Part shown: piece by piece, positions 1,122 to 56,684 of the stretch
How positions within the stretch are numbered: the first letter of the stretch is position 1
How the letters are laid out: the number at the start of each line of letters is the position of its first letter
Assembly (NCBI GenBank): GCA_900765095.1
Contig: CAAFRB010000012.1
Coordinates: 1,199 to 65,198, forward strand
Direction of reading: 5' to 3'
Source: Clostridia bacterium
GTDB taxonomy: Bacteria > Bacillota > Clostridia > TANB77 > UBA1234
DNA: 64,000 nt
The notes under the pieces: generated by a model
What the model was told of the DNA's origin: nothing
The model's input: only the letters and a program-made list of their open reading frames with translations
Database searches by the model: none
Program-made: the position numbers and the translations under genes

Positions 1122-1127
1122 AAAATA

Positions 1128-2167: not shown

Positions 2168-2218
2168 TTTTCAACCTCCTTTTCTTTTTATATAAAAAAG
2201 AGAGCCTTAAAAGACTCT

Positions 2219-8200: not shown

Positions 8201-8338
8201 TCTGGCTTTATTTTCATCAATACTTACTGCATCTAGTTTTGTTGTTTTATTCCTGATTTCATCCCAGTTTAATCGTGATTTACTCGAACCTTGGGTAGTG
8301 GTTCCTGTACTTCTTATTTTTCTCCAATCCAAAGGCAT
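2219..8338 (-). CDS. Giant virion-associated protein (2039 aa), tape-measure/ejection-protein-like, with HEXXH zincin-like motif
   Basis: Single 6.1-kb ORF in the structural operon. It has Gly/Ala-rich segments (GIANAGASAIAGVADLIGQ, LGGGAIEGTTEGLFGLLGVGGTD), a VAVHEMLHDLE HEXXH motif, long Asn/Gln-rich low-complexity linkers and a hydrophobic C-terminal region. Confidence 0.7.
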   Translation of the reverse strand: MPLDWRKIRSTGTTTQGSSKSRLNWDEIRNKTTKLDAVSIDENKARVNNTTANSTKENQSNKMLYQTKAINTIAPTDRKFAQSLPKIVNSSKVKDAGVGELVTQPNAGDDFSQQDKKLFIENMKDRELKREELKSKGLKQGTADLLSKTYRKQLNNGKNIVDSTNVIQSSIGRAMGQQPSDRGKLLKVPENMKDNLRRFKDGYQFGDITATALENFGDSATTLGSTALEIPTRIAKGIFSVSEGIANAGASAIAGVADLIGQDEYANALRKRIAVGTPFVKTHNLLESTADKLDTNSFSGKLLDSATEGVGQSGGQMAVGAALGKFGEVPIKFGDHVLNMPTTAFATGMGSAVAETYAKADEQLGGLENATGEEKLQMALRILGGGAIEGTTEGLFGLLGVGGTDITDKFAKKAVARAENAFQKQLTKILVAGGGEAAEEFISYAGNYLMDNYANKFGKLDFSEKWNWDDVMQEMASAFISSGISQGATSAIQINKVTRNAVQLAETEQGRQLTPQEISEIRNSVADEVLGAREELESLHKDTNVSENSSNTDQISQNNVQNVSNLESNQQMSISDEQNSQVTVTNEIQTFVENRNKIAPGLNVEMDNTLKTDGVIIKNSDGTRTMKINPNSTRAYEFVAVHEMLHDLENTPQYQELQDFVMNRAKSTNGFEEAKAKITETYQNFYQANGLDMSNLNMDMETVNDMTAQALGNQEFLNELAGKKPNVFMRMYNWIKNVAFDGQKTSRTFNERRADNKYLNDLKKKFETAYNTAYKGNASQNYSVGYDINNHPFVVIEEDILDNVPEDKWIKVVKETFKNKFPNGIDMDFFNIGINAKSRNEYVNSEYTKDIKKNENEKYKDKLRMANNIDEIVQNAYNVQNENLKHKRKDSFGSFNRSNIDVKIGNNDYTIDVVTGINKNNNEILYDIVNIKKKTSPIRFSTNVDSKNGTSSINNSIPSSNSTVNNQYMQNTENNAENSNKSSFSLPENNFKQQQLEIIEKNNPVNDDYHTWIRSIEDIKTLEETLQDSEWAEYEEFDPDYTMDIAKKALETGKITVYSSYPIKQGVFVSPSKMEAESYSGNGKVYEKIVNIKDVAWIDPTQGQYAKVIDSKYSQSNNKWQSYLDKNWDLMPNSKKTFGFPTLEELQEFDRQQAKKAYESLHVFEKEENDKKSKIKSLEDIANMSEEDIRNEKGVNYKHKKDKDTQYERKFFKNAETSKVISQEVKDSIDITTYERQSNEQTLEKAKIKLDEQGDKLIKQWETKTKNFTAEDVAIGAILIERYQQMGDTESAVNVVQKLADMGTEVGRAVQMFSIFQRLTPEAMMVYQQRKLNDVFKEISQRKTGEWVEANKEKFKLTAEDNQFITEQVEKAQQATSEREKQIELAKIEKRVNDKLPPERGQTIKAIRRMAMLFNPKTQVRNVVGNALIMPVNDVADIIGTQIDKLIAKKTGVRTTNYADLKEKGKGFKKGITEAVQDYKMGIRTEPSGSKYEFNFGGKSFNENTKSKILNAINNKLNGIENLLGAVMSGGDRPFYEAAFNNSLQGQMKANKVTTPTTEMIDIAVNEALSRTWNDNNSYTEAVLGIRRAMNKLNIGGFGFGDLIIPFAKTPANLTKAIVEYSPVGLVESIIDYSDMKKAISRGEMTAMQQKKFVNSMSKAIAGSILYLIAGTLAHTGAITGSADDDKDVRNFEQNVLGIQPYSIKIGDKAFTYSWANPLNAPLAIMADTYKMSKNNEKLFDILYNAVRTTVGVVVDNSFLQGIKELFEADEPIDGLIDAVLNMPSQFLPTFLSQFATLGDKSKRQTFEYGDKLKTTVNQVKAKIPGLKNTLAPTVNTFGEEVENYGGDNNVFNVFLNPANISKANVTDTQKELYALYEATRDKTIFPMQAPYYLSDDGEKVNLSSNERSEYQKRSGEYVSKELHALFDSEFYKTLENEDKVEVVNKIVKDANTHAKSKWIATKATKEFKKIQEELKDVPMVDYYNAWLAQKDAEGKKNAKGETISGTKKKAKIKAINEAIDDNLTAQQKKILYGIFNVD

Positions 8339-15123: not shown

Positions 15124-15291
15124 TTATTTGCCTAATGCCTTTTCTATTTCACTCTGTTTTGCTTTTAGTTTTTTCTTTGCCTCTTCTAATCTTTGTTTAT
15201 CTTTATATATTTTTTGATATTCGATAAGAGTTCTAGCATCATCTTCTGCTCTCCACTCTTTTTCTTCTTTACTTATTGTACTTTTACTCAT
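15124..15291 (-). CDS. Small K/E-rich coiled-coil protein (55 aa), translationally coupled to portal stop (ATGA overlap)
   Basis: ORF MSKSTISKEEKEWRAEDDARTLIEYQKIYKDKQRLEEAKKKLKAKQSEIEKALGK, found by manual translation; it is below the ORF-track size cutoff. Confidence 0.35.
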   Translation of the reverse strand: MSKSTISKEEKEWRAEDDARTLIEYQKIYKDKQRLEEAKKKLKAKQSEIEKALGK

Positions 15292-16988
15292 GCAACTTTT
15301 CCCTCCATCATATCTAATATTGTTTTTTCCATCTGTCCTGGTGGCAAAGCTTTTATTTGTTCTTGTTGTTCTGGTGGTAAGCTTTCTAAAAACTGTGCCA
15401 TTTGCTCATACTGGTTCTGCTGTGCTTGCATGTCTTGTTGCATTTGAATTTGTTCTTTTAATTTTGTAAGTAGTTCTGCTTTCTTTGGAATTAGTTCGTT
15501 TGGTATTCTTTCTAAGTAATCAATAAATTCAATTCTATCTTGCTGCAATAAATTGTCTAATGTTTGTACTGCAGATATTTCTGAATAATACGATGTTTCT
15601 CCAACATCTATACTTGTTTTTAAATCCATACCTTGCAATTGATTAAAATTAAACATAACTAATTGCCTTGTACCATCTTCAGTCGTCATTAGAACTGGTC
15701 TACTACCGTATTTAACCGACATCATATCAATTAGTATCATGACTTCTTGTTCTATTAAGTCGTATAAATTATCTTTTATATTCGCAAGTGGTACTGCAGT
15801 ACTCTTTTGAACTGCAATAATTGCTGAGGTATTCTTTGGATCTATCTGACCAAGTGAGGCATCAGATACGCCTAAGCACTCTTTTGTATATTGAAATGCT
15901 AAATCAATAACTTTTATAATATAATCACTCATATTAGCAGGTTCTAAATATCCTGCAACATCTTTTATACTTCTGCCACTTTGTGCTAATCCTTTTAACC
16001 CAATAGCTGAGCCAATTTCATTATTCCAGCTAGCAAGCATATCTTTATCATACACAGCTGTCGGAAATGCTGTCATCATCTGATGATAGATAATCATTGC
16101 AAACATCTTATTGATAGCAATCTGATTAGGACATATACCTTCAACTTCACCACGACCATGGAATGTATTTTTCTGCTTGTACCAATTTGAAAATGCAACA
16201 GGATATCTTGTTAAGCCTGTATTAACATTTTCAAATATAATGGCATCCTTTGTGCATTTAGTAACATACACCTTATTGTCTTTCTTTTCATAAAAATAGA
16301 TATACAATGCTTTTCCCTCATCGTCTCCTTCAATGTCTATTTCCGTCTTTGCAAAGTCACTTACTTGGAAATCTGTATCATAATCTTCTTTAATATTTTC
16401 ATTTCTTGATTTTGCTTCTTTCTTTAGATTTTTAACAGTATCTCTACCAACAATAATAATCCATGGTTGTTTTTCCACATCTCTTATATTAGCGTTGCCA
16501 AAACCCACATTAGTTGCATCTATTGTTTCAATCTCGATTTCTCCCAATAAATCCTTATAACTTCTATAAGGTTTCTTATTAGGATTAAATATAGTATGAA
16601 AGCACATATCACCTGTTACTGCGCCATCTAATAAAACATCTTTTGTTTTTATTTTAATGTTACTCTTTTCAAAGATGTTCTTTATTTCTGCATTTAAGAA
16701 ATCGCTATTATCTAACTCCCCTTCTGGCTTTGATGTATATTCAAGTGGTTCAACATTTACCGCTATATCTGATGTAGTTAAACTCGCAATTTTAAACTCT
16801 ATTATTCTTTTAATAATATTAAAGACTGGGTGAGGTAGCTTTTGGTCACCCTCTAATCCAGTCCATTGGTCTCCATTATAAAAATCATTCCATACTTTTA
16901 CGCTTTCATAGTAATTTTTATTAGGTCTAAAAGCACTATTATATGCAACCATGCTCTCATACTTTTTCCAATAATCTTTAGCTTCCAT
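15288..16988 (-). CDS. Portal protein, 566 aa
   Basis: Large gene immediately downstream of terminase large subunit; acidic Q-rich C-terminus typical of portals. Confidence 0.7.
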   Translation of the reverse strand: MEAKDYWKKYESMVAYNSAFRPNKNYYESVKVWNDFYNGDQWTGLEGDQKLPHPVFNIIKRIIEFKIASLTTSDIAVNVEPLEYTSKPEGELDNSDFLNAEIKNIFEKSNIKIKTKDVLLDGAVTGDMCFHTIFNPNKKPYRSYKDLLGEIEIETIDATNVGFGNANIRDVEKQPWIIIVGRDTVKNLKKEAKSRNENIKEDYDTDFQVSDFAKTEIDIEGDDEGKALYIYFYEKKDNKVYVTKCTKDAIIFENVNTGLTRYPVAFSNWYKQKNTFHGRGEVEGICPNQIAINKMFAMIIYHQMMTAFPTAVYDKDMLASWNNEIGSAIGLKGLAQSGRSIKDVAGYLEPANMSDYIIKVIDLAFQYTKECLGVSDASLGQIDPKNTSAIIAVQKSTAVPLANIKDNLYDLIEQEVMILIDMMSVKYGSRPVLMTTEDGTRQLVMFNFNQLQGMDLKTSIDVGETSYYSEISAVQTLDNLLQQDRIEFIDYLERIPNELIPKKAELLTKLKEQIQMQQDMQAQQNQYEQMAQFLESLPPEQQEQIKALPPGQMEKTILDMMEGKVA

Positions 16989-20138: not shown

Positions 20139-21350
20139 CTAATTTTTAGCTTTAAAATTATATATTGGTCTTATTATTTTTTTGATTTCTACTGTATCTT
20201 GTATATTATCTATTATTTCTTGCATAGGCTTGTAAACAAACGGAGCTTCATCTATTGTTTCTATTGCAACTGATGTTGTATATATGCCTTCCATAGATTT
20301 TTTAAATTCTTCTAACGTAAATGTTTCTTTTGCTTTTATTCTTGACATTATTCTTCCTGCTCCATGTGGTGCTGAGAAATTCCAATCTTCATTTCCTTTA
20401 CCTATTGCAATAATACTTCCATCTTTCATATTTATTGGTATTAATACTTTTTCTCCTTTTCTAGCTGATATTGCTCCTTTACGAACTATATTATCTTTAA
20501 ATGAAATATAATTATGAACTGTTTCAAACATTATCCACTCAAATTTTTCATATTCTTCTTTATTAAAATAATTTTTTATAATTTCATGTGCTATATTAAC
20601 TCTGTTGCAGCACGCGTATTCTTGACATATTTGCATATCGTGTAAATACATTTCCCTATATTTGCCTTCTAAATAACACAAATTTTTTGGCAAATTGGGT
20701 TTATTATTTTTATATTCATTTTCTACATTTTTTAATGCACTTTGTATTTCTGACTTCTTTCCTTGCTCTTTATATGTTTTTATTATTTCTTCTTTTCTTT
20801 GATACATTTTTTCCTTATCAGAGCATAATTCTATAGCTAAATTTTGATAATACTCTGCAACCTGCTTTCCCATATTTCTTGAACCTGTATGTATTACTAA
20901 ATACTTATTATTTTCATCATCAATATCTATTTCTATAAAGTGATTTCCACCGCCTAATGTTCCTATTGATCTATTAAACTTTTCTGTTTCTTCAAGCTTA
21001 CTTAAACAATACAAATCATTTATTTTATCAAAATCACATAATTTATGTTCTCTTATATTTCTTCCAGCAGGTATAAATTTATTTACTATACTGTCTAATC
21101 TTTCCAAATTCAAATCAATATTTCCTAGTTCTATACATAGCATTCCACAGCCTATATCTACACCAACGATATTAGGTATAACTTTATTTCCTAAATCTGC
21201 TGTAAAACCTATTACACATCCCTTTCCCGCGTGAACATCAGGCATTATCCTTACTTTACAGTCTTTAAAAGATTCTTGCTCTAATAATTCAGATATCTGT
21301 TCTACAGCCTCATCTTCAATATTGTTAGTAAATATCTTTAAATCTTTCAT
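20139..21350 (-). CDS. rtcB: RtcB-family RNA 3'-phosphate ligase (phage-encoded)
   Basis: RtcB metal-binding motifs RIMPDVHAGKGCVIGF, VGVDIGCGM and HTGSRNMGKQVAEYY are in the expected order. The 403-aa length is consistent with compact RtcB proteins. Confidence 0.75.
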   Translation of the reverse strand: MKDLKIFTNNIEDEAVEQISELLEQESFKDCKVRIMPDVHAGKGCVIGFTADLGNKVIPNIVGVDIGCGMLCIELGNIDLNLERLDSIVNKFIPAGRNIREHKLCDFDKINDLYCLSKLEETEKFNRSIGTLGGGNHFIEIDIDDENNKYLVIHTGSRNMGKQVAEYYQNLAIELCSDKEKMYQRKEEIIKTYKEQGKKSEIQSALKNVENEYKNNKPNLPKNLCYLEGKYREMYLHDMQICQEYACCNRVNIAHEIIKNYFNKEEYEKFEWIMFETVHNYISFKDNIVRKGAISARKGEKVLIPINMKDGSIIAIGKGNEDWNFSAPHGAGRIMSRIKAKETFTLEEFKKSMEGIYTTSVAIETIDEAPFVYKPMQEIIDNIQDTVEIKKIIRPIYNFKAKN

Positions 21351-33084: not shown

Positions 33085-34203
33085 ATGGCTAAACGAAATT
33101 ATAATGGTGAAGGTTCTGTTTATTACCACCAAAAACTACAGAGGTGGGTTGGGCAGTTCACAGATCCTTTCACTCACAAAAGAAAATCTATATATGATAA
33201 AGATGAAAAGGTACTTAGGAAAAAACTGCGTAATGCAATTAGAGATGCGGAAAATGGCAAATTTGTTGAAAAATCCAAAGACACTATACCACAAATTGCC
33301 GAAAAAGTAATTGAACATAAACATCAAGCTAACATTACCAGTTCATCTTCTTACCTTAGAAGCTTAGGTACTCTTGCAATCATCCAAAAATCAGACTTAA
33401 CAGATATTCCTATTCAAAATATAACTAAAAACGATTTGCAGGACTTCTTTTACGGTATTAAAAATTATTCAAACTCTTACATATCAAAAATATTTCAACT
33501 AGTTAAACTTACTTTTGAAGAAGCTATTAAAGATGAATTGATAGTGAAAAACCCCATGGTATATGTTATAAAACCTAAATCCAACAAACAAGATAAAAAA
33601 GTAGAAGCCCTTACCCTAGAACAACATCAACTCTTTGTCAGATCGCTCGAAAATGAATTTTACAAAAATATATTTCTTATAGCAATTAACACTGGTATGA
33701 GATGCGGGGAAATCTTAGCTTTGCAGCCTAATGATATTGACTTTGAAAAGAACATTATCAAAGTTAATAAAACAATAACCAGAAACGACTTTGACAGCTT
33801 CACTCTTAAAGAAGGTGGTAAAACGTATGCCAGCACACGTGAAATTCCTTTTGATAACGATTTAAAGAGCGCTCTTATAAACTCTATATCTAATATGCAA
33901 AAAAACGAATTTGGACTAATATTTTCTCTAAACGGCAAGATAATACGTCCATCTACGCTTAATATTGTCTTTAAAAGAATATGTAAAAACCTAAAGTTCG
34001 AAGGTAGCTATCACTTTCATATGCTGAGACACACATTTGCCACGCGTTGTATCGAATCAGGTATGCCTGCACACGTACTTCAAAAACTTTTAGGTCATAC
34101 AGATGTATCTATTACCATCAATACGTATACTTCAATATTTGACAAATATAAAAAAGAAGAATTTGAAAAATTCCTGGAATACAAAAGAATAAATAATTTA
34201 TAA
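33085..34203 (+). CDS. int: Tyrosine site-specific integrase (phage integrase family)
   Basis: C-terminal catalytic region HFHMLRHTFATRCIESGMPAHVLQKLLGHTDVSITINTYTSI (R..H-x-x-R...Y); RBS AAGGAGG. Confidence 0.9.
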   Translation: MAKRNYNGEGSVYYHQKLQRWVGQFTDPFTHKRKSIYDKDEKVLRKKLRNAIRDAENGKFVEKSKDTIPQIAEKVIEHKHQANITSSSSYLRSLGTLAIIQKSDLTDIPIQNITKNDLQDFFYGIKNYSNSYISKIFQLVKLTFEEAIKDELIVKNPMVYVIKPKSNKQDKKVEALTLEQHQLFVRSLENEFYKNIFLIAINTGMRCGEILALQPNDIDFEKNIIKVNKTITRNDFDSFTLKEGGKTYASTREIPFDNDLKSALINSISNMQKNEFGLIFSLNGKIIRPSTLNIVFKRICKNLKFEGSYHFHMLRHTFATRCIESGMPAHVLQKLLGHTDVSITINTYTSIFDKYKKEEFEKFLEYKRINNL

Positions 34204-44593: not shown

Positions 44594-45697
44594 CTATTGA
44601 TAATTTTCAACATTTGCAATTAATGCTGCAAAGTATGGAATATCTTTATCTTTTTCTTTCAAGAACATTGCATAAGTATCGTCTAAATGGAAATATCTAT
44701 GTTCTGGTTCTTCGATTGGTGCCATGCTAGTAACTTTCATGCTGATTCCTGCTTCGCTCTTAATCTTTCCACCCTTTTCATCTAGTTCAAATTTAATTGT
44801 TTGAATAGCCTTATCTATTTCAGCTACGTTTCCATCAGCTGTCATAAATGGTTTATTTGCTAATTCTGTATACTCTTTTTTCTCATCAAATTTTATATAT
44901 GGTACTTTTAAAGAGTCATATTTTGTAAAATAAGTTTTTCCTGTATAGTTTTCTGAAGCTTCTTTTAAGTTGTTGTAAATATCTTCAAAGTTTTCACCTT
45001 TTGGAGATTTGTACAATACTACCTCATCATTATTCTTCGTTTGCAAACTTACTGCAAAATCGTCTTCTGAATTATAGAATAGTACTTTAACTTGAGAATA
45101 TACATCAGATTTTGTAGTTCCATCAATTCCAAAGTATCTAACATTATTGTACTTATCTGCAAAAGTACCATTATCTAACTTTGTAAAAACTTTAGGAAAT
45201 TCAAATTCTCTCTTAAGCATTGCATAAAAGAAATATCTTGAAATGTCTGGATTGTTTTCATCGTTTACTTGATCAGCATTCCAGCCAAAATCATCTAAAA
45301 TGTCACTAGTTTCATTAAATTTATCTTTTATTCCTTTTTCGATTTGTTCCTTAAACTTTAAGGTTTTCAATCCGTAAGCTTTGTAATAATATTCATCCGA
45401 AAGCATATCAGCAGTAAAGCCTTCTTTGTTTAAATTATTTACCATTGATGGTTGCTCCTGAAATACTATATCCTGCTTCACTACTTCATTCTTCATGTCA
45501 TTCCAAACAAGTTGAAAAGTTGCGCACCAAATCGAATCTCCCGATATTGTATCTTTTAATGTTGGTATCATTGTTATACTTGAGCTCCTTTCATACTCAG
45601 TTTTATTCTTCTCATCATTATTAGGATTTTGGGCTTCATAAGAGCACCCAGTTAACATTAAACTTCCTAGCAATATAAGTGACAAAATTCTTTTCAT
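44594..45697 (-). CDS. Lipoprotein (lipobox LMLTGC), function unknown
   Basis: MKRILSLILLGSLMLTGCSYE signal peptide with lipobox. Confidence 0.6.
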   Translation of the reverse strand: MKRILSLILLGSLMLTGCSYEAQNPNNDEKNKTEYERSSSITMIPTLKDTISGDSIWCATFQLVWNDMKNEVVKQDIVFQEQPSMVNNLNKEGFTADMLSDEYYYKAYGLKTLKFKEQIEKGIKDKFNETSDILDDFGWNADQVNDENNPDISRYFFYAMLKREFEFPKVFTKLDNGTFADKYNNVRYFGIDGTTKSDVYSQVKVLFYNSEDDFAVSLQTKNNDEVVLYKSPKGENFEDIYNNLKEASENYTGKTYFTKYDSLKVPYIKFDEKKEYTELANKPFMTADGNVAEIDKAIQTIKFELDEKGGKIKSEAGISMKVTSMAPIEEPEHRYFHLDDTYAMFLKEKDKDIPYFAALIANVENYQ

Positions 45698-45734
45698 AAA
45701 ATCACATCCTTCTATTCGTTTGACCATTAATATT

Positions 45735-46865
45735 TTATTTTTGTTCCAAAGTTTTAAAATTGAAATTCAATAATTTATTGTCATAATCAAATTCAATCTC
45801 TACATCAAAGAAATCTTCAAGTAAATCTGTAGTCCAAGTATATGGTACGTTATCTCCTTCAAATTCAAGTTTATTTGTACCAAAATAGTACTCTTTTTCT
45901 TTATATACCATAGAAGTAATTCCGCCATTATCAGACCTAGTAACACTTTCTATAACTGGAATATAATTCACAATATCCACAAAGTTAAAATAATATATCT
46001 TTTTATCATATTGATAATCAGCAGTGGTTTCAGTTGCAATTCCATTCACATTAATATTTATACTACTTGGTCTGTAATACTCTTTATATGAGTATTCAGA
46101 TAAATATTCATCATCCACATTATTGTTGTGTGCATACTCCACATAATTACATTTCACTTTATACTGACACTGTTCCATATATTTCTTATCATATTTATCG
46201 ATAGAACATGAAAAATCACCGATGTAAATGTTTGCCTGTAATGTTAAGTAACCTTTCTTTAATATCTTACTTGACTGTTTTCGTATATATTCATTTAAGT
46301 CAATCAATTCAATTACGGCGTCATCTATCTTAGAAAAATTTTCTATTCTCTTTCCATAAACATATTTGAAAAAAGTGACACCATTTTGAGTTCTAGATTG
46401 TTCTTCACTCACTAGGCCATCAATACTTTTCTTAGAAATATATTCAGAAACATATTTCTGGATAAGATATTCATCATAATCGTTAACGTTGTTTCCTCTT
46501 TCTTTATATACCGTAAATACAATGTCGTTATCGTCCCTTACTTTGTACTCTCCATCGAAAGTTTCCTTTTCATTTTTAGTATCAACAACAGTAAAATTTC
46601 CTCTGTATTGCAATCTAATTTGATTAGTAACCTCAACCGTAACTTTTTCTTTCAAAACACTCATTGCCTTAAACAAACAAGAAAAAATAAAACAACATAT
46701 AACAACAATTAATGCAATTAGTATAGCTTTTACAGTAAATACAAAAATGTTTTTATATTTCAACAACTTAACATACTTAAGATCTTGCATTTTTTCATTT
46801 TTCTTTTCTAGTGTTTCTTTATAATATTGATACACATCTTCAATATATTCCTCTTGCTTTCTCAT
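45735..46865 (-). CDS. Membrane-anchored extracellular hypothetical protein (376 aa)
   Basis: Cytoplasmic N-terminus, one TM helix (ILIALIVVICCFIFSCLF) and a Tyr/Asn-rich ectodomain. Confidence 0.5.
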   Translation of the reverse strand: MRKQEEYIEDVYQYYKETLEKKNEKMQDLKYVKLLKYKNIFVFTVKAILIALIVVICCFIFSCLFKAMSVLKEKVTVEVTNQIRLQYRGNFTVVDTKNEKETFDGEYKVRDDNDIVFTVYKERGNNVNDYDEYLIQKYVSEYISKKSIDGLVSEEQSRTQNGVTFFKYVYGKRIENFSKIDDAVIELIDLNEYIRKQSSKILKKGYLTLQANIYIGDFSCSIDKYDKKYMEQCQYKVKCNYVEYAHNNNVDDEYLSEYSYKEYYRPSSININVNGIATETTADYQYDKKIYYFNFVDIVNYIPVIESVTRSDNGGITSMVYKEKEYYFGTNKLEFEGDNVPYTWTTDLLEDFFDVEIEFDYDNKLLNFNFKTLEQK

Positions 46866-46970
46866 ACAAACATCACCAATAATATTTTACAAGATTTTCA
46901 GATTAATATAAATAGATTTTTTAAATATATTTATAGAAAATTTTAGAAGCGGCTAATTTGCACGCTTCTA

Positions 46971-47399
46971 TCATAAATACTGTCTTAAATCATTCATAAA
47001 ATTCTGTTCCAAAGTAACAATACTGTTGGCAATATCCATAGTTTCTTTAGATGCACCAGCATATTGGTTCATATACATGCTAACAGACTTTATTCCCATA
47101 TTGCAGCCATCCATCATTATGTTAGCTATCTTTTCATCCGAATCATTTACAGCCATTTTGATATCAGTAGTAACTTTCAAATTGAATTTAGCAATTGGAT
47201 GTGGTTCTTTAACATCCATGCCAGCCTCTCCTAGCTTTCCTCGTATAGTGTCCAATATTCTAACATGCTCTTCTTCATAGTTTTCAAGCATGTTTCTAAG
47301 CCCTTCATTAAAAGCCTTGTCTATAACACCTTTAATACCATCAATCCCCATCTTTACTCCAGAATCACATTCTTTTAAAAGTTCAATATCATCTGTCAT
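46971..47399 (-). CDS. Hypothetical cytoplasmic protein (142 aa)
   Basis: ORF only. Confidence 0.45.
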   Translation of the reverse strand: MTDDIELLKECDSGVKMGIDGIKGVIDKAFNEGLRNMLENYEEEHVRILDTIRGKLGEAGMDVKEPHPIAKFNLKVTTDIKMAVNDSDEKIANIMMDGCNMGIKSVSMYMNQYAGASKETMDIANSIVTLEQNFMNDLRQYL

Positions 47400-47715: not shown

Positions 47716-47791
47716 GGGCCATTAGCTCAGTTGGCAGAGCACTTGACTTTTAATCAAGTTGTCCGCAGTTCGAATCTGCGATGGCTCACCA
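47716..47791 (+). tRNA. tRNA-Lys (anticodon TTT)
   Basis: Cloverleaf built by hand: acceptor GGGCCAT/ATGGCTC, D-loop AGCTCAGTTGGCAGAGC, anticodon loop CTTTTAA, T-loop GTTCGAATC; CCA encoded. Confidence 0.85.
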
Positions 47792-47798
47792 TGTATCC

Positions 47799-47873
47799 GG
47801 CCCGATGGTCAATCGGTTAAGACATCGCCCTTTCACGGCGGAGTGGGGAGTTCGACTCTCCCTCGGGTCACCA
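47799..47873 (+). tRNA. tRNA-Glu (anticodon TTC)
   Basis: Acceptor GGCCCGA/TCGGGTC, anticodon stem-loop TCGCC-CTTTCAC-GGCGG, T-loop GTTCGACTC; CCA encoded. Confidence 0.8.
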
Positions 47874-47877
47874 TATT

Positions 47878-47953
<76 letters not shown>

Positions 47954-47954
47954 A

Positions 47955-47999
47955 AGTTCTAGAAAATTTACGTTAGTAAGGTTTCTAGAACTTTTTTTA
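47955..47999 (+). terminator. Rho-independent terminator after tRNA cluster
   Basis: Hairpin agttctagaaa...tttctagaact followed by TTTTTTT. Confidence 0.75.
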
Positions 48000-48056
48000 T
48001 GTCTAATTATGCTGTTAAGACTCTTTATCAATAGTTGGAGTTTACCACCCCAACTA

Positions 48057-48084
48057 AAATTATAGAACCACAATTATAGAACCA
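48057..48084. repeat. Tandem direct repeat 2 x 14 bp ((a/c)AATTATAGAACCA) immediately downstream of the tRNA cluster
   Basis: Read directly: aaaattatagaacca caattatagaacca. Confidence 0.6.
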
Positions 48085-48165
48085 GAAATATAATCGATAA
48101 AATGTCACTTCTTGAATTTGCCAATAAAAACTTAATATGTTAAAATATTGTTAAGGAGGGAATTT

Positions 48166-49554
48166 ATGTCTGATTTAGAATTATATAGTAGTGATGAATA
48201 CAATAACGGAGTATGGTATTTATTAAAGCTCAATCCTGATTTGAATATAAATATTGATACATTAGTGTTTATACCGAAAGATATTGATAGAAAAAGATTA
48301 TCAAGAATCTCTGTTATCGCTGCAAACACTGGTTCACCACCACAGATTGATAGTACTAAAAAACCTAATCCTAATTTGAATGAAAACGAAAAGATTTTAG
48401 AAATACCAATAGAAGAAAGAAAAGAAAGATTTTTTCCAAAGTACCTCAGTCGATTTGGAGATATGGTTGATATCGAAAAAGGACAAAATTCCATATTAGT
48501 TTATCCAGTGATTGTTCAAAGAACGAATGGTGAATATTATCAACAACTTACAAAAGCAGCTCTTGAACCAGGTCAACCAGAGGGCTTTGAAAGAATAGAT
48601 AAACAAGTTTTGACAGCAATAGATACCATAAGAGAACAATTGTCTTCGAAACCTTTTTCAATAAATACATACCCCGATATTGATATGCTTGGACAGTCGG
48701 CATCAGGAAGCTTCTCACGAAGATTTACTTTTCTTCACTTAGACAGGGTGCACCTTTCATATTCGAATGGTGCAAAAGATGCTATAACTTTACCTGTGGA
48801 AAGTATAAAAAACATCCGTACTGGTGAAGACACCCCTCTTCCATATCCACTTGGAATTGCTGATATTTGTGAATATTATAAAGATAATGATGGAAAATAC
48901 GAATTTGATGGAATGAAATATGATGAACCTGATAAATTTATGGAAGCATACAAAAAAAGACTCAAAGATGTTCCATTTTTACTTACTTATGGAAATAAAG
49001 AAGATGAAAAGGGTCCTCATCATATACATGGCAGAAAGATAGTTGACCACCCAACGCAAGAAAAATGGGGTATTATAGAAGATCCAAACGATCCAATAAT
49101 TAACGGATCTATCGTTATTGGAAACGATGCACGAGCATATCAAGCAAAGGAAAATATTTTGCCAGAAAACACTACATCAAAAGACGATTTAATACCTGTT
49201 TCTACGTATGATATGACTTTTATAAGGTCGATTATTCCTCTTGAAACAGCCGTGATTATGAGAGAATGTATTGGCAAAACACCAGCCGACAGAATGAATA
49301 GAACACAAGAGATTTGGAAAGAAAATGGATTAGAAAACAACATTACAATTAAAGAAGTGGGTACAGAAGAAAATCCGGTCGGACACGGAACAACTAAAGA
49401 AACCGTCGGCATTGCCTCAAAATTTGTTGACGATGTGTCTAAAAACACCTTATTATTGAGCTCAAAACGTGCTTTGAAAGAAAAAGCACAGCAATACCAA
49501 GAAATTCAAAATGATAGACATATAAATAACGATAGGAGCCGAAAAGAGCGATGA
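48166..49554 (+). CDS. Hypothetical protein (462 aa), first gene of tRNA-adjacent operon; no recognisable family
   Basis: Strong RBS AAGGAGGG 7 nt before ATG 48166. The stop overlaps the next gene start (ATGA). Soluble, with a charged C-terminal tail. Confidence 0.6.
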   Translation: MSDLELYSSDEYNNGVWYLLKLNPDLNINIDTLVFIPKDIDRKRLSRISVIAANTGSPPQIDSTKKPNPNLNENEKILEIPIEERKERFFPKYLSRFGDMVDIEKGQNSILVYPVIVQRTNGEYYQQLTKAALEPGQPEGFERIDKQVLTAIDTIREQLSSKPFSINTYPDIDMLGQSASGSFSRRFTFLHLDRVHLSYSNGAKDAITLPVESIKNIRTGEDTPLPYPLGIADICEYYKDNDGKYEFDGMKYDEPDKFMEAYKKRLKDVPFLLTYGNKEDEKGPHHIHGRKIVDHPTQEKWGIIEDPNDPIINGSIVIGNDARAYQAKENILPENTTSKDDLIPVSTYDMTFIRSIIPLETAVIMRECIGKTPADRMNRTQEIWKENGLENNITIKEVGTEENPVGHGTTKETVGIASKFVDDVSKNTLLLSSKRALKEKAQQYQEIQNDRHINNDRSRKER

Positions 49555-49859
49555 AAAATATAATTACAATTCTAAAGGACTTTTTTAAAAGCATATTTAT
49601 CAAAAAGGATAAATTAATTGACGAGGCTAAAATTGTACAAGAAAGTGGACAAGCATGCAGTAAGAGCAAAGATTCATATTTTGATGAAATGAGGTCTGAA
49701 TCTGAAAAAAGAAATCACTTACTTAATCTGAAAAAGAGATTTGAAAACGAAGAAATCTCAGAGTCGCAAATAAGTGAAGAAGATAAAAAAGGAATAGAAG
49801 GCTTGTATTACGAACAAATACAATCACTTAATAGAAAGATAAGAAATGCTAAAAAATAA
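49551..49859 (+). CDS. Small helical charged protein (102 aa), translationally coupled to upstream gene
   Basis: ATGA overlap with the upstream gene; K/E-rich predicted helices. Confidence 0.5.
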   Translation: MKNIITILKDFFKSIFIKKDKLIDEAKIVQESGQACSKSKDSYFDEMRSESEKRNHLLNLKKRFENEEISESQISEEDKKGIEGLYYEQIQSLNRKIRNAKK

Positions 49860-49961
49860 AACCATGATTGTTAGGCTTTTTGGAGCATGTAAAATAAAAT
49901 TATAAATTAGTAAAAGAGCAACAGAATAGTTCTCACGATAATGTAACTCAAAGTAGAGAAA

Positions 49962-50795
49962 ATGAATATGATAGGTAAGATGTGTAATATGAAAAATATT
50001 GGAGAATACAGTATTGAAGTTCAAGAAATATTAAAAAGATACGATAATGAAAGAAATAAATACAGATTGAAAAAAAACTTATCCATAGTACTAGTACTGT
50101 TATGTTTTTCGTTTATAATGTTGGGTATAAATTTGGTTTATCCGTTTGTTAGTGATAGATTAATGATAATTATTATAGCATTTATACTTTGTGCAATGGT
50201 CGGGTTTTTAGGTCTTGTACTCTTATTTGATATAAGACTATATAATCTTGAAAGAAAAATATTTGGAGAAGTGGAACAGGTTAATTTAAAAGAATATAAT
50301 TATTCTACTAAAAAGATAGAAAAAGAAGATTTTGAAAATACACTACTAGGGAAAAGGACTAGCTCTAAATTACATTATTATAGTAGTAATGATGGAATTT
50401 TACATTATAAATTGGATGGTTGTGATTGTCTTATTGGTACAATATCTACTACCAACAAAAGAGGTGAAATTTTATCGTGGACATATATAAAGAAAACCTT
50501 AAAGATAAGTAATGAAATTTGTTTTTATAGTGATTTAAATAGAAAAGAAATTATAACTGAAAAAGAAAACTTAAAAGATAAAAAAGCAATACTTTTTTAT
50601 ATATTAAAAGAGTACGGAGAAGATGTTTTAGTTGAGTCAGATGGTCAATTTATAGAAGTATTACTAGATGAAGTTAGAATTGGTCATTTTGAAGAAATAT
50701 GTCCAGAAGAATTATCAAAAGAATATATGGAGAGTAATATAAAAACTATAGAAGATATGATAAATGAAATAGAATATTTTATTGCAAATATTTAA
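49962..50795 (+). CDS. Membrane protein (277 aa) with two TM helices and C-terminal cytoplasmic domain
   Basis: TM segments LSIVLVLLCFSFIMLGINLV and IIIIAFILCAMVGFLGLVLLF. Confidence 0.5.
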   Translation: MNMIGKMCNMKNIGEYSIEVQEILKRYDNERNKYRLKKNLSIVLVLLCFSFIMLGINLVYPFVSDRLMIIIIAFILCAMVGFLGLVLLFDIRLYNLERKIFGEVEQVNLKEYNYSTKKIEKEDFENTLLGKRTSSKLHYYSSNDGILHYKLDGCDCLIGTISTTNKRGEILSWTYIKKTLKISNEICFYSDLNRKEIITEKENLKDKKAILFYILKEYGEDVLVESDGQFIEVLLDEVRIGHFEEICPEELSKEYMESNIKTIEDMINEIEYFIANI

Positions 50796-50849
50796 TAAAA
50801 TAGTTTTGAAGGAAAGAAAAAAGTTTATAGTTTTAAGACCATTAGATGA

Positions 50850-51070
50850 AGTATAGTCAGTTGTATTTGTGAATACTACATATTTCTATCTCAAAGATAC
50901 TAGGGGTTCTGATAAGAAAGCGGTATATATAATTTTAGGAATAAATTCAAACGGTTACAAGGATGTATTAGGCTTCTATGTAAGCGAAAGTGAAAGTGCA
51001 AATATTGGTTAAATATTCTCAATGAATTAGGAAAACGTAGCTACATTCTTCAAATACAGTTCAGCTATTA
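50850..51070 (+). pseudogene. IS256-family (Mutator-like) transposase relic, internal fragment with frameshift
   Basis: Manual translation gives YLKDTRGSDKKAVYIILGINSNGYKDVLGFYVSESESANIG, then a +1 shift WLNILNELGKRSYILQ. These match the conserved central region of IS256 transposases (KAVY.ALGI...G.K.VLG.W....E.A.FW..VL..L..RG). No start and no full-length ORF. Confidence 0.55.
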
Positions 51071-51204
51071 GAAAGTTAATTTACACAAACTTTTCTACGT
51101 ACTCAAATAAGTTATTTTACAAAAAAATAGGATTCGAATCAAAAAAATGATTCAAATCCTATTTTTGTTAGGGACTTTTTACAGCTCCTTTTGTTCTAAT
51201 ATTC

Positions 51205-52944
51205 TTACACATTTTCAGCCGCAAGTATTTTCTTCATTTCTTCTCCACGTTTAATTTTCTTTGTTGTAGTTTTTATAAGTTCTTCATCAGAAATGATTAA
51301 ATGCTTGATATATTTGTATTTGGGGAAAGATTTGTTAATCTCCTTTATCTGCCCCCATAATATCTCCTCTATTTCTGCCTGTGTCTTTTCTTTATATTCT
51401 TTTTCAACTACATCTTTGTCAAGAACAACCTTTACAGATAGTTTTACGTCTCCATCATCCTTTGGAAGTCCAAAAACCATACATTCGTCAACTAAATCTA
51501 ATTTGTTGATTAAAGCTTCAATCTCCTCTGGAAATACTTTTTTACCATTATAAAGTACAATCATGTCCTTTTTTCTACCAGTTAAGAATAAATATCCCTC
51601 TTCATCAAAATAGCCTAAATCACCTGTATAGAACCAGCCATCTTTTATAACTTCTTTTGTAAGCTCTTCATTTTCATAGTATCCAAGCATCACATTTGGA
51701 CCTTTTACTCTAACTTCACCTATTCCGTTTTCATCTTTGTCAACTATTTGAATTTCAACATTTTGCATTGTTTTTCCAACAGATCCCGCTTTCATTGCAA
51801 ATGCACTTTCAGCAGCTAATACTGGTGCCGTTTCTGTAAGACCATATCCTTGAACCAATTGTATTCCAATAGAGTTAAAATATTCATATATATCTTTTTG
51901 AAGTGGTGCTCCACCCGCAATTATAAATCTCAAAGAGCCACCTAATTGGTCAATGATAACTTTGTACATTTTTCTTCTTACATCAATCCTACACTTGTAC
52001 AATACATTGCTTATTACCTTAGCCAACTTTAATACTTTTTCTTTGCCTTGTTTTTTTATTTGTTTTTGAATATTTTTATAAATTGATTCTATCAAAATAG
52101 GTACTCCGACAAATATAGAAACTTTGTACTCTTTAAGATTTTGTGCAACATATCTTATACCATCGGCAAATGTATTTGTAACACCGCAAGCAAGCATCAT
52201 CGCTATGCATGTAGAGCCAAATATATGGTGAAAAGGCAGAAGTGCAATATTTACATCTCCTTCGCCAATTGGTTCAACCAATTGCATCGCATATATATTT
52301 GAAGCTATGTTTTTTTGTGAAAGCATTACAGCTTTTGAGTTAGCACTAGTACCAGATGTAAATAACAAAATAGACATTTTTTCGCTATCAATTTTGTAAT
52401 TTACATACTCCTTATTTCCTTTCTTTAAAAGCTTCTCTCCTTCATTCTTAATTGATAAAATATCTAAATACCCATCTAGTTTTTCCATAGAAATGTATTC
52501 TTTAACATTTACCTCTTCATTTGACTTTAATTTTTCGATTTTATCAACATATTTAGAATCAAAAACTATTACATCTGCCTTGCTCCTGATGACAGATTGG
52601 CTTAATTCCACATCGTGCAGTTCTTTGTCTAGCGGTACTGAAACTATTCCACCAATTAGATTTGTAAAATGAGTCAAGGCCCACTCATAACAATTCTTTC
52701 CTAATAGTGCAATTCTCTTTCCTCTATATTCTCGTTTGAAAAATGCTGTTCCAAGAGAATTAATATCTTTCAAAAAAGCTTTATAAGTTATATATGTATA
52801 TTTTCCTGCTGCACTTGCATCTCTTTCGTTAAAATTATTTTTTATTATAAACGCATTAGTATTTGCATATTTGTTAGCAGAATTATAAATTATTTCTTTT
52901 ATATTATTAAATTCTGTAGCCTCAAAACATTTATCTTTTTTCAT
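51205..52944 (-). CDS. AMP-dependent synthetase/ligase (long-chain acyl-CoA synthetase-like)
   Basis: AMP-binding motifs [28 protein letters not shown] and [25 protein letters not shown]. Confidence 0.85.
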   Translation of the reverse strand: [579 protein letters not shown]

Positions 52945-53681: not shown

Positions 53682-55304
53682 ATGATTTTCAATTATTTTT
53701 TCTTTCACTCATTATTTAATTGCGAAGAATTACATTATACTTTTTTATTCAAAGAGTTCTATTTCAATCCATGGACATGGGAAAAAATTAAAAATTACTA
53801 CTCTATTGTTGTGGTTATTTCGTGGATACTTATTTCAATTAGTTTTTATAACAAACTATCTTTTACAAGTCAGGATGATAGCAAATCTATAAATTCTACC
53901 AATACTGCTTCTGATTTATCATTAACTCTTGGTAAAAATAAGGATTCTCTTTTACCAGTAATAATTCCAGAAAAAGGATTATATCAAAACGTTCTAATCA
54001 CTGGCACAATAGGCACAGGAAAAACTTCTTCTGCTATATACCCATTCATACATCAACTTCTCAAGCATGATATGGGAATGCTTATATTAGACGTTAAAGG
54101 TAACTTGCATATTAAAGTAAAAGAAATGGCAAAGAAATTAAACAAAAAAGTTAGAGTCATTGAACTATCAGGTAAAGAAACTTACAACCCTTTAGATAAA
54201 CCTCATTTGAAACCATCTATTTTAGCTAATAGATTAAGAACAATTTTATCTCTATTTTCAAATCAAAATGCTACAGATACATATTGGATGGACAAGGTCG
54301 AATTATATCTAACCGAATGTATAAAGCTCTGCAGAATGTATAACGATAACTACGTTACATTCACAGAATTGCACAAACTAATATATGACAAAAAATATTT
54401 AAAAGAAAAAATTGAATTTGTAAAAAATTTATTTTTACAAAACAAGCTAAATTATAATCAAACCTATGATTTCAGTACTTGTATCGATTTTTTTCAAAGC
54501 GAGTTTCAAACACTCGATTCAAAAGTTCTCTCTATTATTCAATCAGAGATTTCTCGCATAACACAACTTTTTATAAACGATTTAGATGTAAAACAAACTT
54601 TTTGTCCTAATAAAGAAGATATAACATTTAATGGATTTGAAAATCTTGGAAACGATATTGTCGTTTTAAATATGAATGTTGCAGAATACAGAAACTTAGC
54701 AAAAGTAATGGCTGCATATTTAAAATTAGACTTTCAATCAGAAATTCTTATGAAACTAGCTAAAAAACAAAATATATCCACAGTTGCTTTTGTGTGTGAT
54801 GAATATTCAGAATACGCAACCGAAAATGATGCCTCATTTTTTTCTCAAAGTAGAGAAGCTAAATGTATAAATATTATTTCAACCCAAAGTTATACATCTT
54901 TGCTAAATGCTGTTAGAGAACAAAACGCTGCTAAAGTAATTATTCAAAGCTTAGTAAATAAAATCTGGTTTAGAACAGACGATATTTTCACAATAGAAGA
55001 AGCACAAAAGCAACTTGGAAAGGAGGATAAAATTAAATATTCTAGGAGTCTGTCTGAGAACGCAAAAGAAACCAAATACAGCTATATTTTAAAAACTTTC
55101 CGTTCTGAAAATTCAAATTTATCTGAAAGTATTAGTACACAAGTGCAACATGATTTTGTATATGATATCAACGCATTTTCAATGGAGCTAAAAACATTTG
55201 AGGCAATATGCTTTATAACTACAGGTCAAGAAATTTTAAGACCACAAGTCGTCAGACTTACTCCAATTTTTGAAATCGAAAACAAAGCAAAAAAATTTAT
55301 ATAA
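53682..55304 (+). CDS. Type IV secretion coupling protein-like ATPase (VirD4/TraG/TcpA-FtsK-like), 540 aa
   Basis: N-terminal TM helix SIVVVISWILISISF; Walker A VLITGTIGTGKTSS followed by the T4CP-like motif LILDVKGN; Walker B-like VAFVCDEY. Confidence 0.65.
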   Translation: MIFNYFFFHSLFNCEELHYTFLFKEFYFNPWTWEKIKNYYSIVVVISWILISISFYNKLSFTSQDDSKSINSTNTASDLSLTLGKNKDSLLPVIIPEKGLYQNVLITGTIGTGKTSSAIYPFIHQLLKHDMGMLILDVKGNLHIKVKEMAKKLNKKVRVIELSGKETYNPLDKPHLKPSILANRLRTILSLFSNQNATDTYWMDKVELYLTECIKLCRMYNDNYVTFTELHKLIYDKKYLKEKIEFVKNLFLQNKLNYNQTYDFSTCIDFFQSEFQTLDSKVLSIIQSEISRITQLFINDLDVKQTFCPNKEDITFNGFENLGNDIVVLNMNVAEYRNLAKVMAAYLKLDFQSEILMKLAKKQNISTVAFVCDEYSEYATENDASFFSQSREAKCINIISTQSYTSLLNAVREQNAAKVIIQSLVNKIWFRTDDIFTIEEAQKQLGKEDKIKYSRSLSENAKETKYSYILKTFRSENSNLSESISTQVQHDFVYDINAFSMELKTFEAICFITTGQEILRPQVVRLTPIFEIENKAKKFI

Positions 55305-55327
55305 TTGAAAGGAATGATATTCCAAAT

Positions 55328-55768
55328 ATGGAAAATAAGAAAAAAATTAATATAAAATATCATAAAATATCTGAATCAGATAAGTTTGATAACGAGGTAA
55401 AAAAATCTAATTCAAATAACGCCCAAAATAAAGGCAGAAAAAAATATAAAATTATAATACTTTTTTCAACATTCACTCTCCTTTTCTCACTATTTACAAT
55501 TTCTTACGCAGGTCTTTTTGGTGGAAGTGATGATTTGACATCAAAAATAACAAAAGGATTATCACAAATAGAAGATTGGATTTTAAAAATAGCGACACCT
55601 GCAGCTGCAGTATCAATTGGCTTTGGGCTCTTAATGAAAAAATTTAGTTTTGGTGACGAAGAGAAAATAACTTTAGGTAAAAAGTTAATTAGAAGTACTA
55701 TATTCTCTTATGCTTTTATATTACTAATAGACCCTGTAATATCTGCAATTCAGACACTTTTCGCATAG
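55328..55768 (+). CDS. Small membrane protein (146 aa, 3 TM), conjugation-module-associated
   Basis: TM segments IIILFSTFTLLFSLFTI, AAAVSIGFGLLM and IFSYAFILLIDPVISAIQ; RBS GAAAGGAATG. Confidence 0.45.
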   Translation: MENKKKINIKYHKISESDKFDNEVKKSNSNNAQNKGRKKYKIIILFSTFTLLFSLFTISYAGLFGGSDDLTSKITKGLSQIEDWILKIATPAAAVSIGFGLLMKKFSFGDEEKITLGKKLIRSTIFSYAFILLIDPVISAIQTLFA

Positions 55769-55784
55769 AGAGGAACCTAAATTT

Positions 55785-56684
55785 ATGGAAGCATTAATTC
55801 AAAACGACACTAGTAACATAGTATCAAATATTATAGAAATAATAAACTCAATATGTTCTACACTTTTCTCCTCTATCGATAAGAGTATTTTCCCGCTCTT
55901 AGATGAACTTGTTTTTATAGACAAACAAATTTTAAACACAGGAGATAAAATGAATAAACTTCTAAGTACGTCGCCAACAAGTGGTATATTGCTTTTAGCC
56001 AATTCATTATTTGTAGCTTTTGTACTATACTATGCCGTACGACTTTTACTAGTAAATCTTACGGATTCCAATGTTGAATCACCTGCAAAATTCTTTATGA
56101 GAGCATTTTTATCACTAGTATGTGCCAATTTTTCAGTACAAATTTGCACTTTTCTAATAAATTCTACGAATCTAATTAGCACCTTTTTTTGTCAACTCGG
56201 AAAAAATGTATTTGGCACACAATTATCTTTTGTCACATTAATTTCAAAGCTTTCCGAATCATCAATAAATTCATTCGATGTCTTTTCATTAGATGGTATA
56301 TTATCTGGAATGCTTTCTATTTCTTCTTTTGCATTAGTCATAAGCTTTGCTTTCAGATATATAATAATAAAAGTATTAGTACTCTTATCACCATTTGCAA
56401 TGCTATGTCTTAGTAATACTTCAACGACCGGTTTCTTTAAAAGTTGGTTAAAGAGTTTTCTTTCATTATTATTTTTGCAAATAGTAATATCTGTTATAAT
56501 GTTAATTCCTTACGCATTAATAAACGAGAATTCTAGCACAGTTTTCAACAAAGTTCTTTTGGTCGGTTCAATAATAACATTACTAAAATCAAATCAATTA
56601 GTAAAAGAAATTATTGGTGGAATAGGAATTGACACAAACTTTCAAAGTGGTATTGCAGGAATAAAATCGATGATATCGAGGTGA
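55785..56684 (+). CDS. Polytopic membrane protein (299 aa), VirB6/TrbL-like candidate
   Basis: At least five predicted TM helices; directly follows the T4CP-like gene. Confidence 0.45.
   Translation: MEALIQNDTSNIVSNIIEIINSICSTLFSSIDKSIFPLLDELVFIDKQILNTGDKMNKLLSTSPTSGILLLANSLFVAFVLYYAVRLLLVNLTDSNVESPAKFFMRAFLSLVCANFSVQICTFLINSTNLISTFFCQLGKNVFGTQLSFVTLISKLSESSINSFDVFSLDGILSGMLSISSFALVISFAFRYIIIKVLVLLSPFAMLCLSNTSTTGFFKSWLKSFLSLLFLQIVISVIMLIPYALINENSSTVFNKVLLVGSIITLLKSNQLVKEIIGGIGIDTNFQSGIAGIKSMISR

Follow-up and report, generated by a model that had tools for sequence, protein, structure and literature searches.

A mobile enzyme-adaptor-membrane cassette with a divergent predicted alpha/beta-fold hydrolase next to a tRNA cluster of a gut Clostridia bacterium

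In a stretch of 64,000 nucleotides from a Clostridia bacterium (contig CAAFRB010000012.1, assembly GCA_900765095.1; the whole stretch is called the window in the following), three co-directional genes at positions 48166-50795 raise the question of what they encode, whether they belong together and what their biological role might be. An earlier sequence-only reading, made without database searches, had described them as a coupled operon of a large soluble enzyme-like protein, a small charged helical protein and a two-helix membrane protein. It had recognized no family for any of them, and the arrangement on island DNA had been compared to effector/immunity or sensor/effector defence modules. 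The ensemble is best called a mobile enzyme-adaptor-membrane cassette, and its enzyme is clearly predicted to be a hydrolase. The three genes are:

Gene 1, 48166-49554, plus strand: 462 residues counted from the ATG; a soluble, predicted cytoplasmic alpha/beta-fold serine hydrolase.
Gene 2, 49551-49859, plus strand: a helical orphan protein of 102 residues.
Gene 3, 49962-50795, plus strand: an orphan membrane protein of 277 residues, or of 268 residues if the start is at 49989.

All three open reading frames (ORFs) are real coding genes and not chance ORFs, because each of them has diverged homologues (30-60% identity), and because the ratios of non-synonymous to synonymous substitution rates (dN/dS) are 0.18-0.29 for all three genes, i.e., they are under purifying selection. 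An antisense ORF of 120 residues at 48132-48494 received no support. The mechanical ORF of gene 1 opens with a TTG at 48148, and the ATG is located at 48166. The ribosome-binding site (RBS) AAGGAGGG is found at 48153-48160, 5 nucleotides upstream of this ATG. The start codon of gene 2 and the stop codon of gene 1 overlap as ATGA at 49551-49554, and a gap of 102 nucleotides separates gene 2 from gene 3. The three ORFs, the RBS AAGGAGGG, the ATGA overlap and the two transmembrane (TM) helices of gene 3 had all been proposed from the sequence, and they were recovered as described.

The most informative component is gene 1, which is clearly predicted, by its sequence profile and by a structural model, to be an alpha/beta-fold hydrolase with an intact catalytic triad Ser178-Glu279-His407. 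No hidden Markov model (HMM) of Pfam, NCBIfam, PADLOC or PHROGs covers the protein, and the Pfam models Esterase, DLH and Abhydrolase did not match it even at E <= 1. The earlier statement that no family matches is therefore correct for curated HMM libraries, and it is not correct for the fold of gene 1. In a word-indexed search of 5.8 billion proteins the close family was restricted to six clusters with 53-99% identity, and among 185,579 GTDB species genomes gene 1 was present in a single one, a metagenome-assembled genome (MAG) of a human-gut Clostridia species. An exhaustive profile search yielded 488 relatives at E <= 1e-3, which share the central 130 residues. The family alignment contains the motifs NNTG, RxDxQ, GxSxxG, LHP, YPxGIxD, GxxD/E and GxGH. 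The nucleophile elbow of gene 1 is GQSASG, with Ser178 as the nucleophile, and 127 of 144 distant relatives have a comparable elbow. Ser178, Glu279 and His407, the last of which lies within a GHG motif, are invariant across the close and intermediate family, and most relatives have an Asp in the column of Glu279.

A comparison of the family profile with the PDB revealed crystal structures of poly(aspartic acid) hydrolase-1 (PahZ1) at E 1e-9, with an alignment covering nearly the whole core, and additionally a weak match to 3d0k. The triad of PahZ1, S126/D194/H249, has been defined experimentally, and R215 positions the substrate (PMC13017698). In the profile alignment these three residues align with Ser178, Glu279 and His407 of gene 1, and R215 (KP-2) aligns with Arg366, which is invariant in the close family and lies in a column that is variable in the wider family. 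AlphaFold2 (AF2) gave no usable model of gene 1 with only 7 close homologues (predicted local distance difference test, pLDDT, 47.8). With an alignment of 55 sequences, in contrast, an alpha/beta-hydrolase was predicted with a pLDDT of 91.2 and a predicted TM-score (pTM) of 0.90. A Foldseek search of the PDB with this model resulted in 69 matches at E <= 1e-3, and the best 50 that were listed were all alpha/beta-hydrolases. PahZ1 was in first place (8e-8), followed by esterase D/S-formylglutathione hydrolase and an LpqC polyhydroxybutyrate (PHB)-depolymerase-like esterase. Model and matches agree on a central beta-sheet that is flanked by helices and has the canonical strand order. The enzyme-like nature that had been ascribed to gene 1 was thus upheld by profile, model and structure search alike.

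Single-domain relatives of about 330 residues lack three elements that gene 1 possesses. Two of them are insertions, one at about residues 240-262 and a beta-rich one at about 283-345, which separates the acid residue from the histidine; the third is a long C-terminal helix (411-461). The region between the acid and the histidine is the usual lid position in alpha/beta-hydrolases. The last 50 residues are basic (isoelectric point, pI, 9.8), and this C-terminal tail is poorly conserved. Gene 1 contains neither a hydrophobic segment nor a signal peptide, and a cytoplasmic location is predicted because of the missing hydrophobic segment. About 44% of the wider hydrolase family carry an N-terminal hydrophobic segment, which is absent from the gene 1 clade; these members are, judged from their sequences, probably secreted. 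By its profile and its predicted fold, gene 1 belongs to a known superfamily, as a new and divergent member within an uncurated clade. For a protein that is blank in every curated library, a predicted fold and an active site open to testing (Ser178, Glu279, His407) are now available, and a Pfam-less alpha/beta-hydrolase clade has been defined by 488 representatives at E <= 1e-3, the only characterized relative of which is a polyamide hydrolase.

Gene 2 is an orphan and, according to sequence comparisons, a conserved and usually translationally coupled partner of the hydrolase. Its homologue overlaps the hydrolase stop codon in three lineages, represented by the related loci L001/L002, L003/L004 and L007. 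The gene 2 homologue of L001/L002 shares 51% identity with it, and in L007 the overlap is retained even though the hydrolase is only 36% identical to gene 1. In L010/L011, where the hydrolase is about 31% identical, the gene 2 homologue comes third downstream of the hydrolase. The partner is not universal: the hydrolase relative P0011 lacks gene 2 and is instead followed by an orphan of 156 residues with a C-terminal amphipathic helix, and P0009, P0010 and the L017 hydrolase lack it as well. In the gene 2 family an N-terminal amphipathic helix (NIITILKDFFK in gene 2) is joined by a variable linker to a conserved helical motif at the C-terminus, YFDEMR...EI.E..IS.EDK..I..LYYEQI..LNRKIR. The hydrophobic moment of the N-terminal helix is 0.5-0.86 in six of six lineages and is comparable to those of the membrane-targeting helices of FtsA, SepF and MinD. 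The family had no match in Pfam and, by profile search, no match in the PDB. Two strain forms of 102 and 107 residues exist, the longer one ending in …KKENHGC (polymorphism at 49857-49859). Between L001 and L003 gene 2 has an amino acid identity of 68%, compared to 90% for gene 1. In the same comparison dS is 0.98 in gene 2 and 0.25 in the overlapping gene 1, about a four-fold difference, which suggests a mosaic origin of the pair or short-gene noise.

In gene 3 a basic N-terminus is followed by two hydrophobic segments (about residues 40-60 and 66-90) and then by an acidic C-terminal domain of about 185 residues (pI 4.9), and a hairpin with both termini inside the cell is predicted from this arrangement. 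The two TM helices and the cytoplasmic domain of about 190 residues that had been proposed earlier are therefore confirmed as predictions, and the domain contains the motif LDGCDCLIGT. The true start of gene 3 is ambiguous by nine codons, because the first methionine common to all homologues is Met10 at 49989. Strains differ by a 6-bp indel (Val-Leu) in the first TM helix, at codons around 50096, and annotated starts result in 268-284 residues. The gene 3 profile did not match any PDB entry. Weak matches to WxPxxD_TM and TraX were rejected, as they reflect TM-helix composition. Likewise, the idea that gene 3 is the counterpart of the membrane or lipoprotein genes upstream of hydrolase relatives (288 residues in L003, 263 residues in L007) was rejected, as no similarity was detected with BLASTP or hhalign.

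The gene 3 family consists of only three clusters, and the sole diverged homologue, with 60% identity, is found in L015. There it is located 33 nucleotides upstream of the gene for a longer protein, and the C-terminal part of this protein is itself a hydrolase from the same broad family. The order in L015 is a gene-2-like gene, four intervening genes, the gene 3 homologue and the hydrolase-family gene, all in one co-directional operon; in the gene-2-like protein the C-terminal motif is duplicated, and the operon also encodes a member of the 156-residue family. A chance co-occurrence of gene 3 and the hydrolase in L015 is implausible because both families are rare, and the two are genuinely associated, but in a modular way. 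Genes 2 and 3 represent two orphan families that are genetically tied to the hydrolase clade. The L015 operon (1-6954) is fully co-directional and comprises eight orphan genes, one of which encodes a 631-residue protein made of two internal repeats (…EW[YF]GVLE…G.FCAFL…), and the hydrolase of this locus is fused to an N-terminal domain of about 330 residues. No matches of the orphans of this operon were found in Pfam, PHROG, PADLOC or the PDB.

The surroundings of the three genes contain the following features, which bear on the question whether the genes move and whether they move together:

Cluster of tRNA-Lys(UUU), tRNA-Glu(UUC) and tRNA-Thr(UGU), 47716-47953, plus strand: found with ARAGORN and Rfam; left border of the variable locus and integration hotspot.
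Hairpin with T-run, 47953-47994, plus strand: inverted repeat I4 with arms of 19 nucleotides, 89% complementary; judged from the sequence, likely the terminator of the tRNA operon, setting that operon apart from the cassette.
Candidate sigma-70-like promoter, 48118-48146, plus strand: TTGCCA-17-TAAAAT with an extended TG, about 20 nucleotides upstream of gene 1.
Transferred block, 48158-51312: found with blastn and MAFFT in comparison with contigs L016 and L006 of a sister lineage.
Remnant of an IS256/Mutator-family transposase, 50869-51012, plus strand: 47 codons, ending in …AVYIILGINSNGYKDVLGFYVSESESANIG and a stop; on the right side of the cassette and inside the transferred block.
Strong hairpin with A/T runs on both sides, 51123-51166: inverted repeat I3 with arms of 19 nucleotides, 95% complementary; by its position and form likely a bidirectional terminator between gene 3 and a convergent AMP-ligase gene.

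The promoter candidate matches the consensus at 10 of 12 positions in a consensus scan, which is a pattern match only. The tRNA cluster ends 212 bp upstream of gene 1, and the Rfam scan detected tRNAs only. The assignment of the transposase remnant is based on its translation and on a weak match of Transposase_mut to the same ORF in L023.

The clearest indication of mobility came from the comparison with the sister lineage (L016 and L006, the latter being MAG HGM13616). The block from 48158 to 51312 is 99.3% identical to these contigs, differing by 17 substitutions and a single 6-bp indel over 3155 bp, while the flanks are only about 72-97% identical. It is therefore concluded that genes 1, 2 and 3 were recently transferred by recombination as one piece. 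The block opens exactly at the RBS of gene 1 and closes within the convergent AMP-ligase gene, in its 3' end. Together with the pair of genes 1 and 2 that is conserved in several lineages, this bears out the view that the three genes form one unit, and in the human gut the trio crosses lineage boundaries as a unit.

The site itself is variable. In the window, as well as in several identical contigs, tRNA-Thr is separated from the region upstream of gene 1 by only 145 bp. L016/L006 (L016 3798-5019) and L022 (4641-5853), a sister strain, have two extra genes directly upstream of gene 1, which would be located at 47956-48100 of the window. The first extra gene encodes an orphan of 142-145 residues that starts with '...VVYHGSPxGGLTEIKP', and the second one encodes 253 residues, a truncated paralogue of the N-terminal half of the hydrolase that lacks the serine and is, from its sequence, possibly a pseudo-enzyme or a decoy. 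A relationship between the 145-residue 'YHGS' protein and the N-terminal domain of the L015 hydrolase fusion was considered and not supported. In L022 an islet of about 3 kb (1305-4359) is inserted at the counterpart of position 47955 of the window. It encodes a Bsp6I-type restriction endonuclease, a C5 DNA methyltransferase, a DUF6864 protein and a TM protein of 109 residues, and its borders are formed by a 40-bp direct repeat of the 3' end of tRNA-Thr, which resembles att sites. An integrase was not found in the islet, and in the window no att-like copy of the tRNA-Thr end was found at the flanks of the cassette. Scans of IMG/VR with the profiles of the hydrolase and of gene 2, together with tblastn searches of phage and plasmid collections, did not reveal relatives of the three proteins, with the exception of one weak match of a haloarchaeal megaplasmid to the hydrolase core. 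The proposal of island DNA was well founded, as shown by the tRNA hotspot, the IS256 remnant and the restriction-modification (R-M) islet at the same site of a sister strain.

Which function might such a unit have? The reading that is favoured here is that the cassette is a mobile unit with a membrane-associated intracellular serine hydrolase and that it has a role in conflict; for this full reading a probability of about 0.35 is assigned. A conflict role is considered the most likely one because the cassette is rare, mobile and modular and resides in a variable locus of the defence type; a housekeeping role for the cassette is less likely. According to this proposal, gene 2 would sit on the inner face of the membrane through its N-terminal amphipathic helix, and its conserved C-terminal helices would hold or regulate the hydrolase. 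Gene 3 might be a membrane-embedded regulator or sensor, or a protective partner. The active hydrolase would cut an ester or amide bond in a membrane-proximal substrate, which could be a lipid, a lipid-linked envelope precursor or an acidic polymer, and the outcome might be an abortive-infection-like defence or self-addiction. A more far-reaching version holds that the trio, together with shuffled relatives (the 156-residue family and the kinase-fused forms), represents an undescribed three-component membrane-associated conflict system of gut Clostridia, in which the amphipathic-helix adaptor holds the effector, the two-TM sensor switches it on, and abortive infection or self-addiction results. 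This version is doubtful and is put forward very tentatively. If the conflict reading is true, a serine-hydrolase effector with a membrane-tethering adaptor joins the bacterial immune and addiction modules.

Several results weigh against a conflict role. Genes 1-3 matched no family of PADLOC-DB 2.0 (5027 models) at E <= 1, and the proteins of the related loci yielded only matches at the noise level. With regard to a location in defence islands the picture is mixed: defence-type neighbours were found in one strain variant, L022, with its R-M islet and DUF6864 protein at the same tRNA site, and the other loci are flanked by housekeeping genes. The islet is weak guilt by association, because it was inserted separately and has an att-like repeat of its own. 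Most relatives of gene 1 have no gene 3 next to them, and in L015 the identity is 60% for gene 3 but only about 30% for the hydrolase core, so that gene 3 and the hydrolase do not co-vary as would be expected for a tight effector-immunity pair. The C-terminal tail of gene 1 is a weak candidate for the docking of gene 2, because it is poorly conserved. Lastly, in a sister clade (L008 7859-9496, encoding P0009, and L017 4688-6343) the hydrolase is fused C-terminally to a shikimate-kinase-like P-loop domain, and this clade resides in a conserved RNase R-rumA housekeeping context, which suggests small-molecule metabolism. Of the defence or effector-immunity module that had been proposed from the sequence, the operon, the island context and the architecture of enzyme, partner and membrane protein therefore remain, and a homology to known defence proteins in PADLOC was not found. 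The sequence-only reading had also named two outcomes that would speak against it, namely homologues in housekeeping contexts and a placement of gene 1 in a known metabolic enzyme family. The second of them applies in part: structure prediction assigns gene 1 to a known enzyme superfamily, but not to a known metabolic enzyme family.

The main rival, which is rather unlikely, is an accessory catabolic or detoxifying esterase or amidase. Gene 1 would hydrolyse a small molecule or oligomer in the cytoplasm, e.g., an antibiotic, an ester of a xenobiotic, or an unusual amide such as a beta-aspartyl one, genes 2 and 3 would position the enzyme or handle uptake or sensing, and the cassette would have spread through an advantage in the gut niche. 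The nearest characterized relatives of gene 1 are indeed catabolic (PahZ1, esterase D/S-formylglutathione hydrolase, feruloyl esterases, LpqC), relatives are found among housekeeping genes, and the lack of matches to defence models agrees as well. The fusion to the shikimate-kinase-like domain is a further point, as is a stand-alone homologue of this domain two genes upstream of gene 1 in L003/L004 (L003 106-684). Taken together, kinase fusion and rumA-adjacent context fit a small-molecule enzyme as well as a conflict role. What argues against such an enzyme is that transporter, regulator or pathway genes accompany the cassette in none of the loci, that every recurring neighbour is an orphan, that a metabolic trait would not usually be so extremely rare or have its modules shuffled, and that gene 3 with only two TM helices is unlike a transporter. 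Should the metabolic reading be true, the cassette points to an ester or amide substrate that is handled by gut Clostridia.

It is improbable that gene 1 is instead a secreted antibacterial toxin similar to TslA/TslM, with reverse domain order and exported by type VIIb secretion, gene 2 being a secretion partner of the Lap/Tla type and a membrane protein or lipoprotein conferring immunity. The layout agrees with an N-terminal alpha/beta-hydrolase and a C-terminal helix, and the relatives P0007 and P0011-13 have helical C-terminal extensions of about 130 residues. In addition, a gene for a small helical partner immediately follows the hydrolase gene, as at the tslA locus (PMC10730906), and the locus is polymorphic and mobile. 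In L003/L004 a gene for a lipoprotein of 288 residues is found immediately upstream of gene 1, which is the position of tilA. However, the C-terminal region of gene 1 is a single, poorly conserved helix of about 50 residues without a three-helix LXG-like domain, and the amphipathic N-terminus of gene 2 is not a feature of Lap/Tla proteins. EssC, EsxA and WXG100 genes were not seen among the scanned proteins of the 64-kb window, and a lipoprotein is absent from the cassette in the window. Moreover, most of gene 3 has a predicted location in the cytoplasm, and the fold of gene 1 is that of PahZ1-type esterases rather than that of class-3 lipases.

A plain addiction pair of the toxin-antitoxin type, in which gene 1 would be a growth-arresting hydrolase checked by the co-translated gene 2 and gene 3 an unrelated passenger, would explain the tight translational coupling across lineages, the mobility and patchy distribution and the faster evolution of gene 2, and is possible but atypical and the least probable of all, because a toxin of 462 residues with a downstream antitoxin devoid of a DNA-binding domain is atypical, the hydrolase relatives P0009/P0010 and P0011 lack gene 2, and gene 3 is transferred together with the pair and recurs in L015.

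Further genes of the window and of the related loci were inspected. The window contains a prophage on the minus strand (1-34203) with many orphan ORFs. Its features include a P22-like portal gene (15288-16988), an RtcB RNA ligase gene (20139-21350), a tyrosine integrase gene (33085-34203) and a gene for a protein of 2039 residues (2219-8338) without a Pfam match. A prophage at 1-34 kb as the owner of the cassette was rejected, as about 14 kb of chromosomal genes lie in between and the cassette is found without the prophage in other contigs. Upstream of the tRNAs, at 44594-47399 on the minus strand, a lipoprotein of 377 residues, a single-TM protein of 376 residues and a DUF2383-like protein of 142 residues are encoded; these conserved flanking orphans are outside of the cassette and belong to the slower-diverging backbone, with 75-81% identity to the sister lineage. 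At 53682-56684 a VirD4/TraG-like coupling-protein ATPase (540 residues), a protein resembling pilins of type IV secretion systems (146 residues) and an orphan of 299 residues are encoded. The nucleotide identity of these genes to the sister lineage is 70-94%, other type IV secretion genes were not found nearby, and dnaB/dnaI-like helicase-loader genes (57240-59231) follow. By its appearance, the region could be a relic within the chromosome or a minimal module for DNA transfer. For the neighbouring orphans of the related loci (582 residues in L001; 631, 189 and 156 residues in L015; 145 and 253 residues in L016), scans of the PDB, Pfam, PHROG and PADLOC were empty.

The comparison with known systems starts with PahZ1 (PDB 9o7u and 6ve6), which shares with gene 1 the alpha/beta-hydrolase fold, the elbow G-F/Q-S-A-x-G and a GH motif. 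Members of the PahZ1 family have mutual TM-scores above 0.90 (PMC13017698). In contrast, the best Foldseek match of gene 1 to 9o7u has TM-scores of only 0.61 for the target (TMt) and 0.38 for the query (TMq) at about 12% identity, which is outside of this range. In addition, the acid of the triad is Asp in PahZ1 and Glu in gene 1, and the insertions at about 240-262 and 283-345, the C-terminal helix and the linkage to genes 2 and 3 set gene 1 apart. With the group of LpqC-type PHB depolymerases and esterase D (S-formylglutathione hydrolase), gene 1 has the core fold and the order of the triad residues in common (Foldseek E 1e-5 to 1e-6), and it differs from this group in not being a significant member of its sequence families. 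Gene 1 is thus distantly related to PahZ1 and to LpqC-type amidases and esterases, and it is not a member of the PahZ1 family.

At the level of the whole locus, the TslA-TlaA1/TlaA2-TilA locus of Staphylococcus aureus (PMC10730906) and the cassette have in common an N-terminal hydrolase domain, a helical C-terminus and one or more small helical partners encoded downstream, and both are polymorphic and island-borne. The cassette is different in having a hydrolase of another subfamily with a single short C-terminal helix and only one partner instead of two, which has an amphipathic N-terminus and no sequence similarity to known families. Genes of a type VII secretion system were not seen among the scanned proteins of the window, and a DUF576-type immunity lipoprotein is absent from it. 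A last group for comparison are the anti-phage systems of PADLOC-DB that are composed of an enzyme, a membrane protein and a small adaptor. Unlike these systems, the cassette is known from its genes alone, and none of the 5027 models matched its proteins or those of the related loci. It nevertheless has the same compact multi-gene build with enzymatic and TM components, and it shares with them a variable, tRNA-adjacent locus beside an R-M system, which in this case is present in the sister strain L022.

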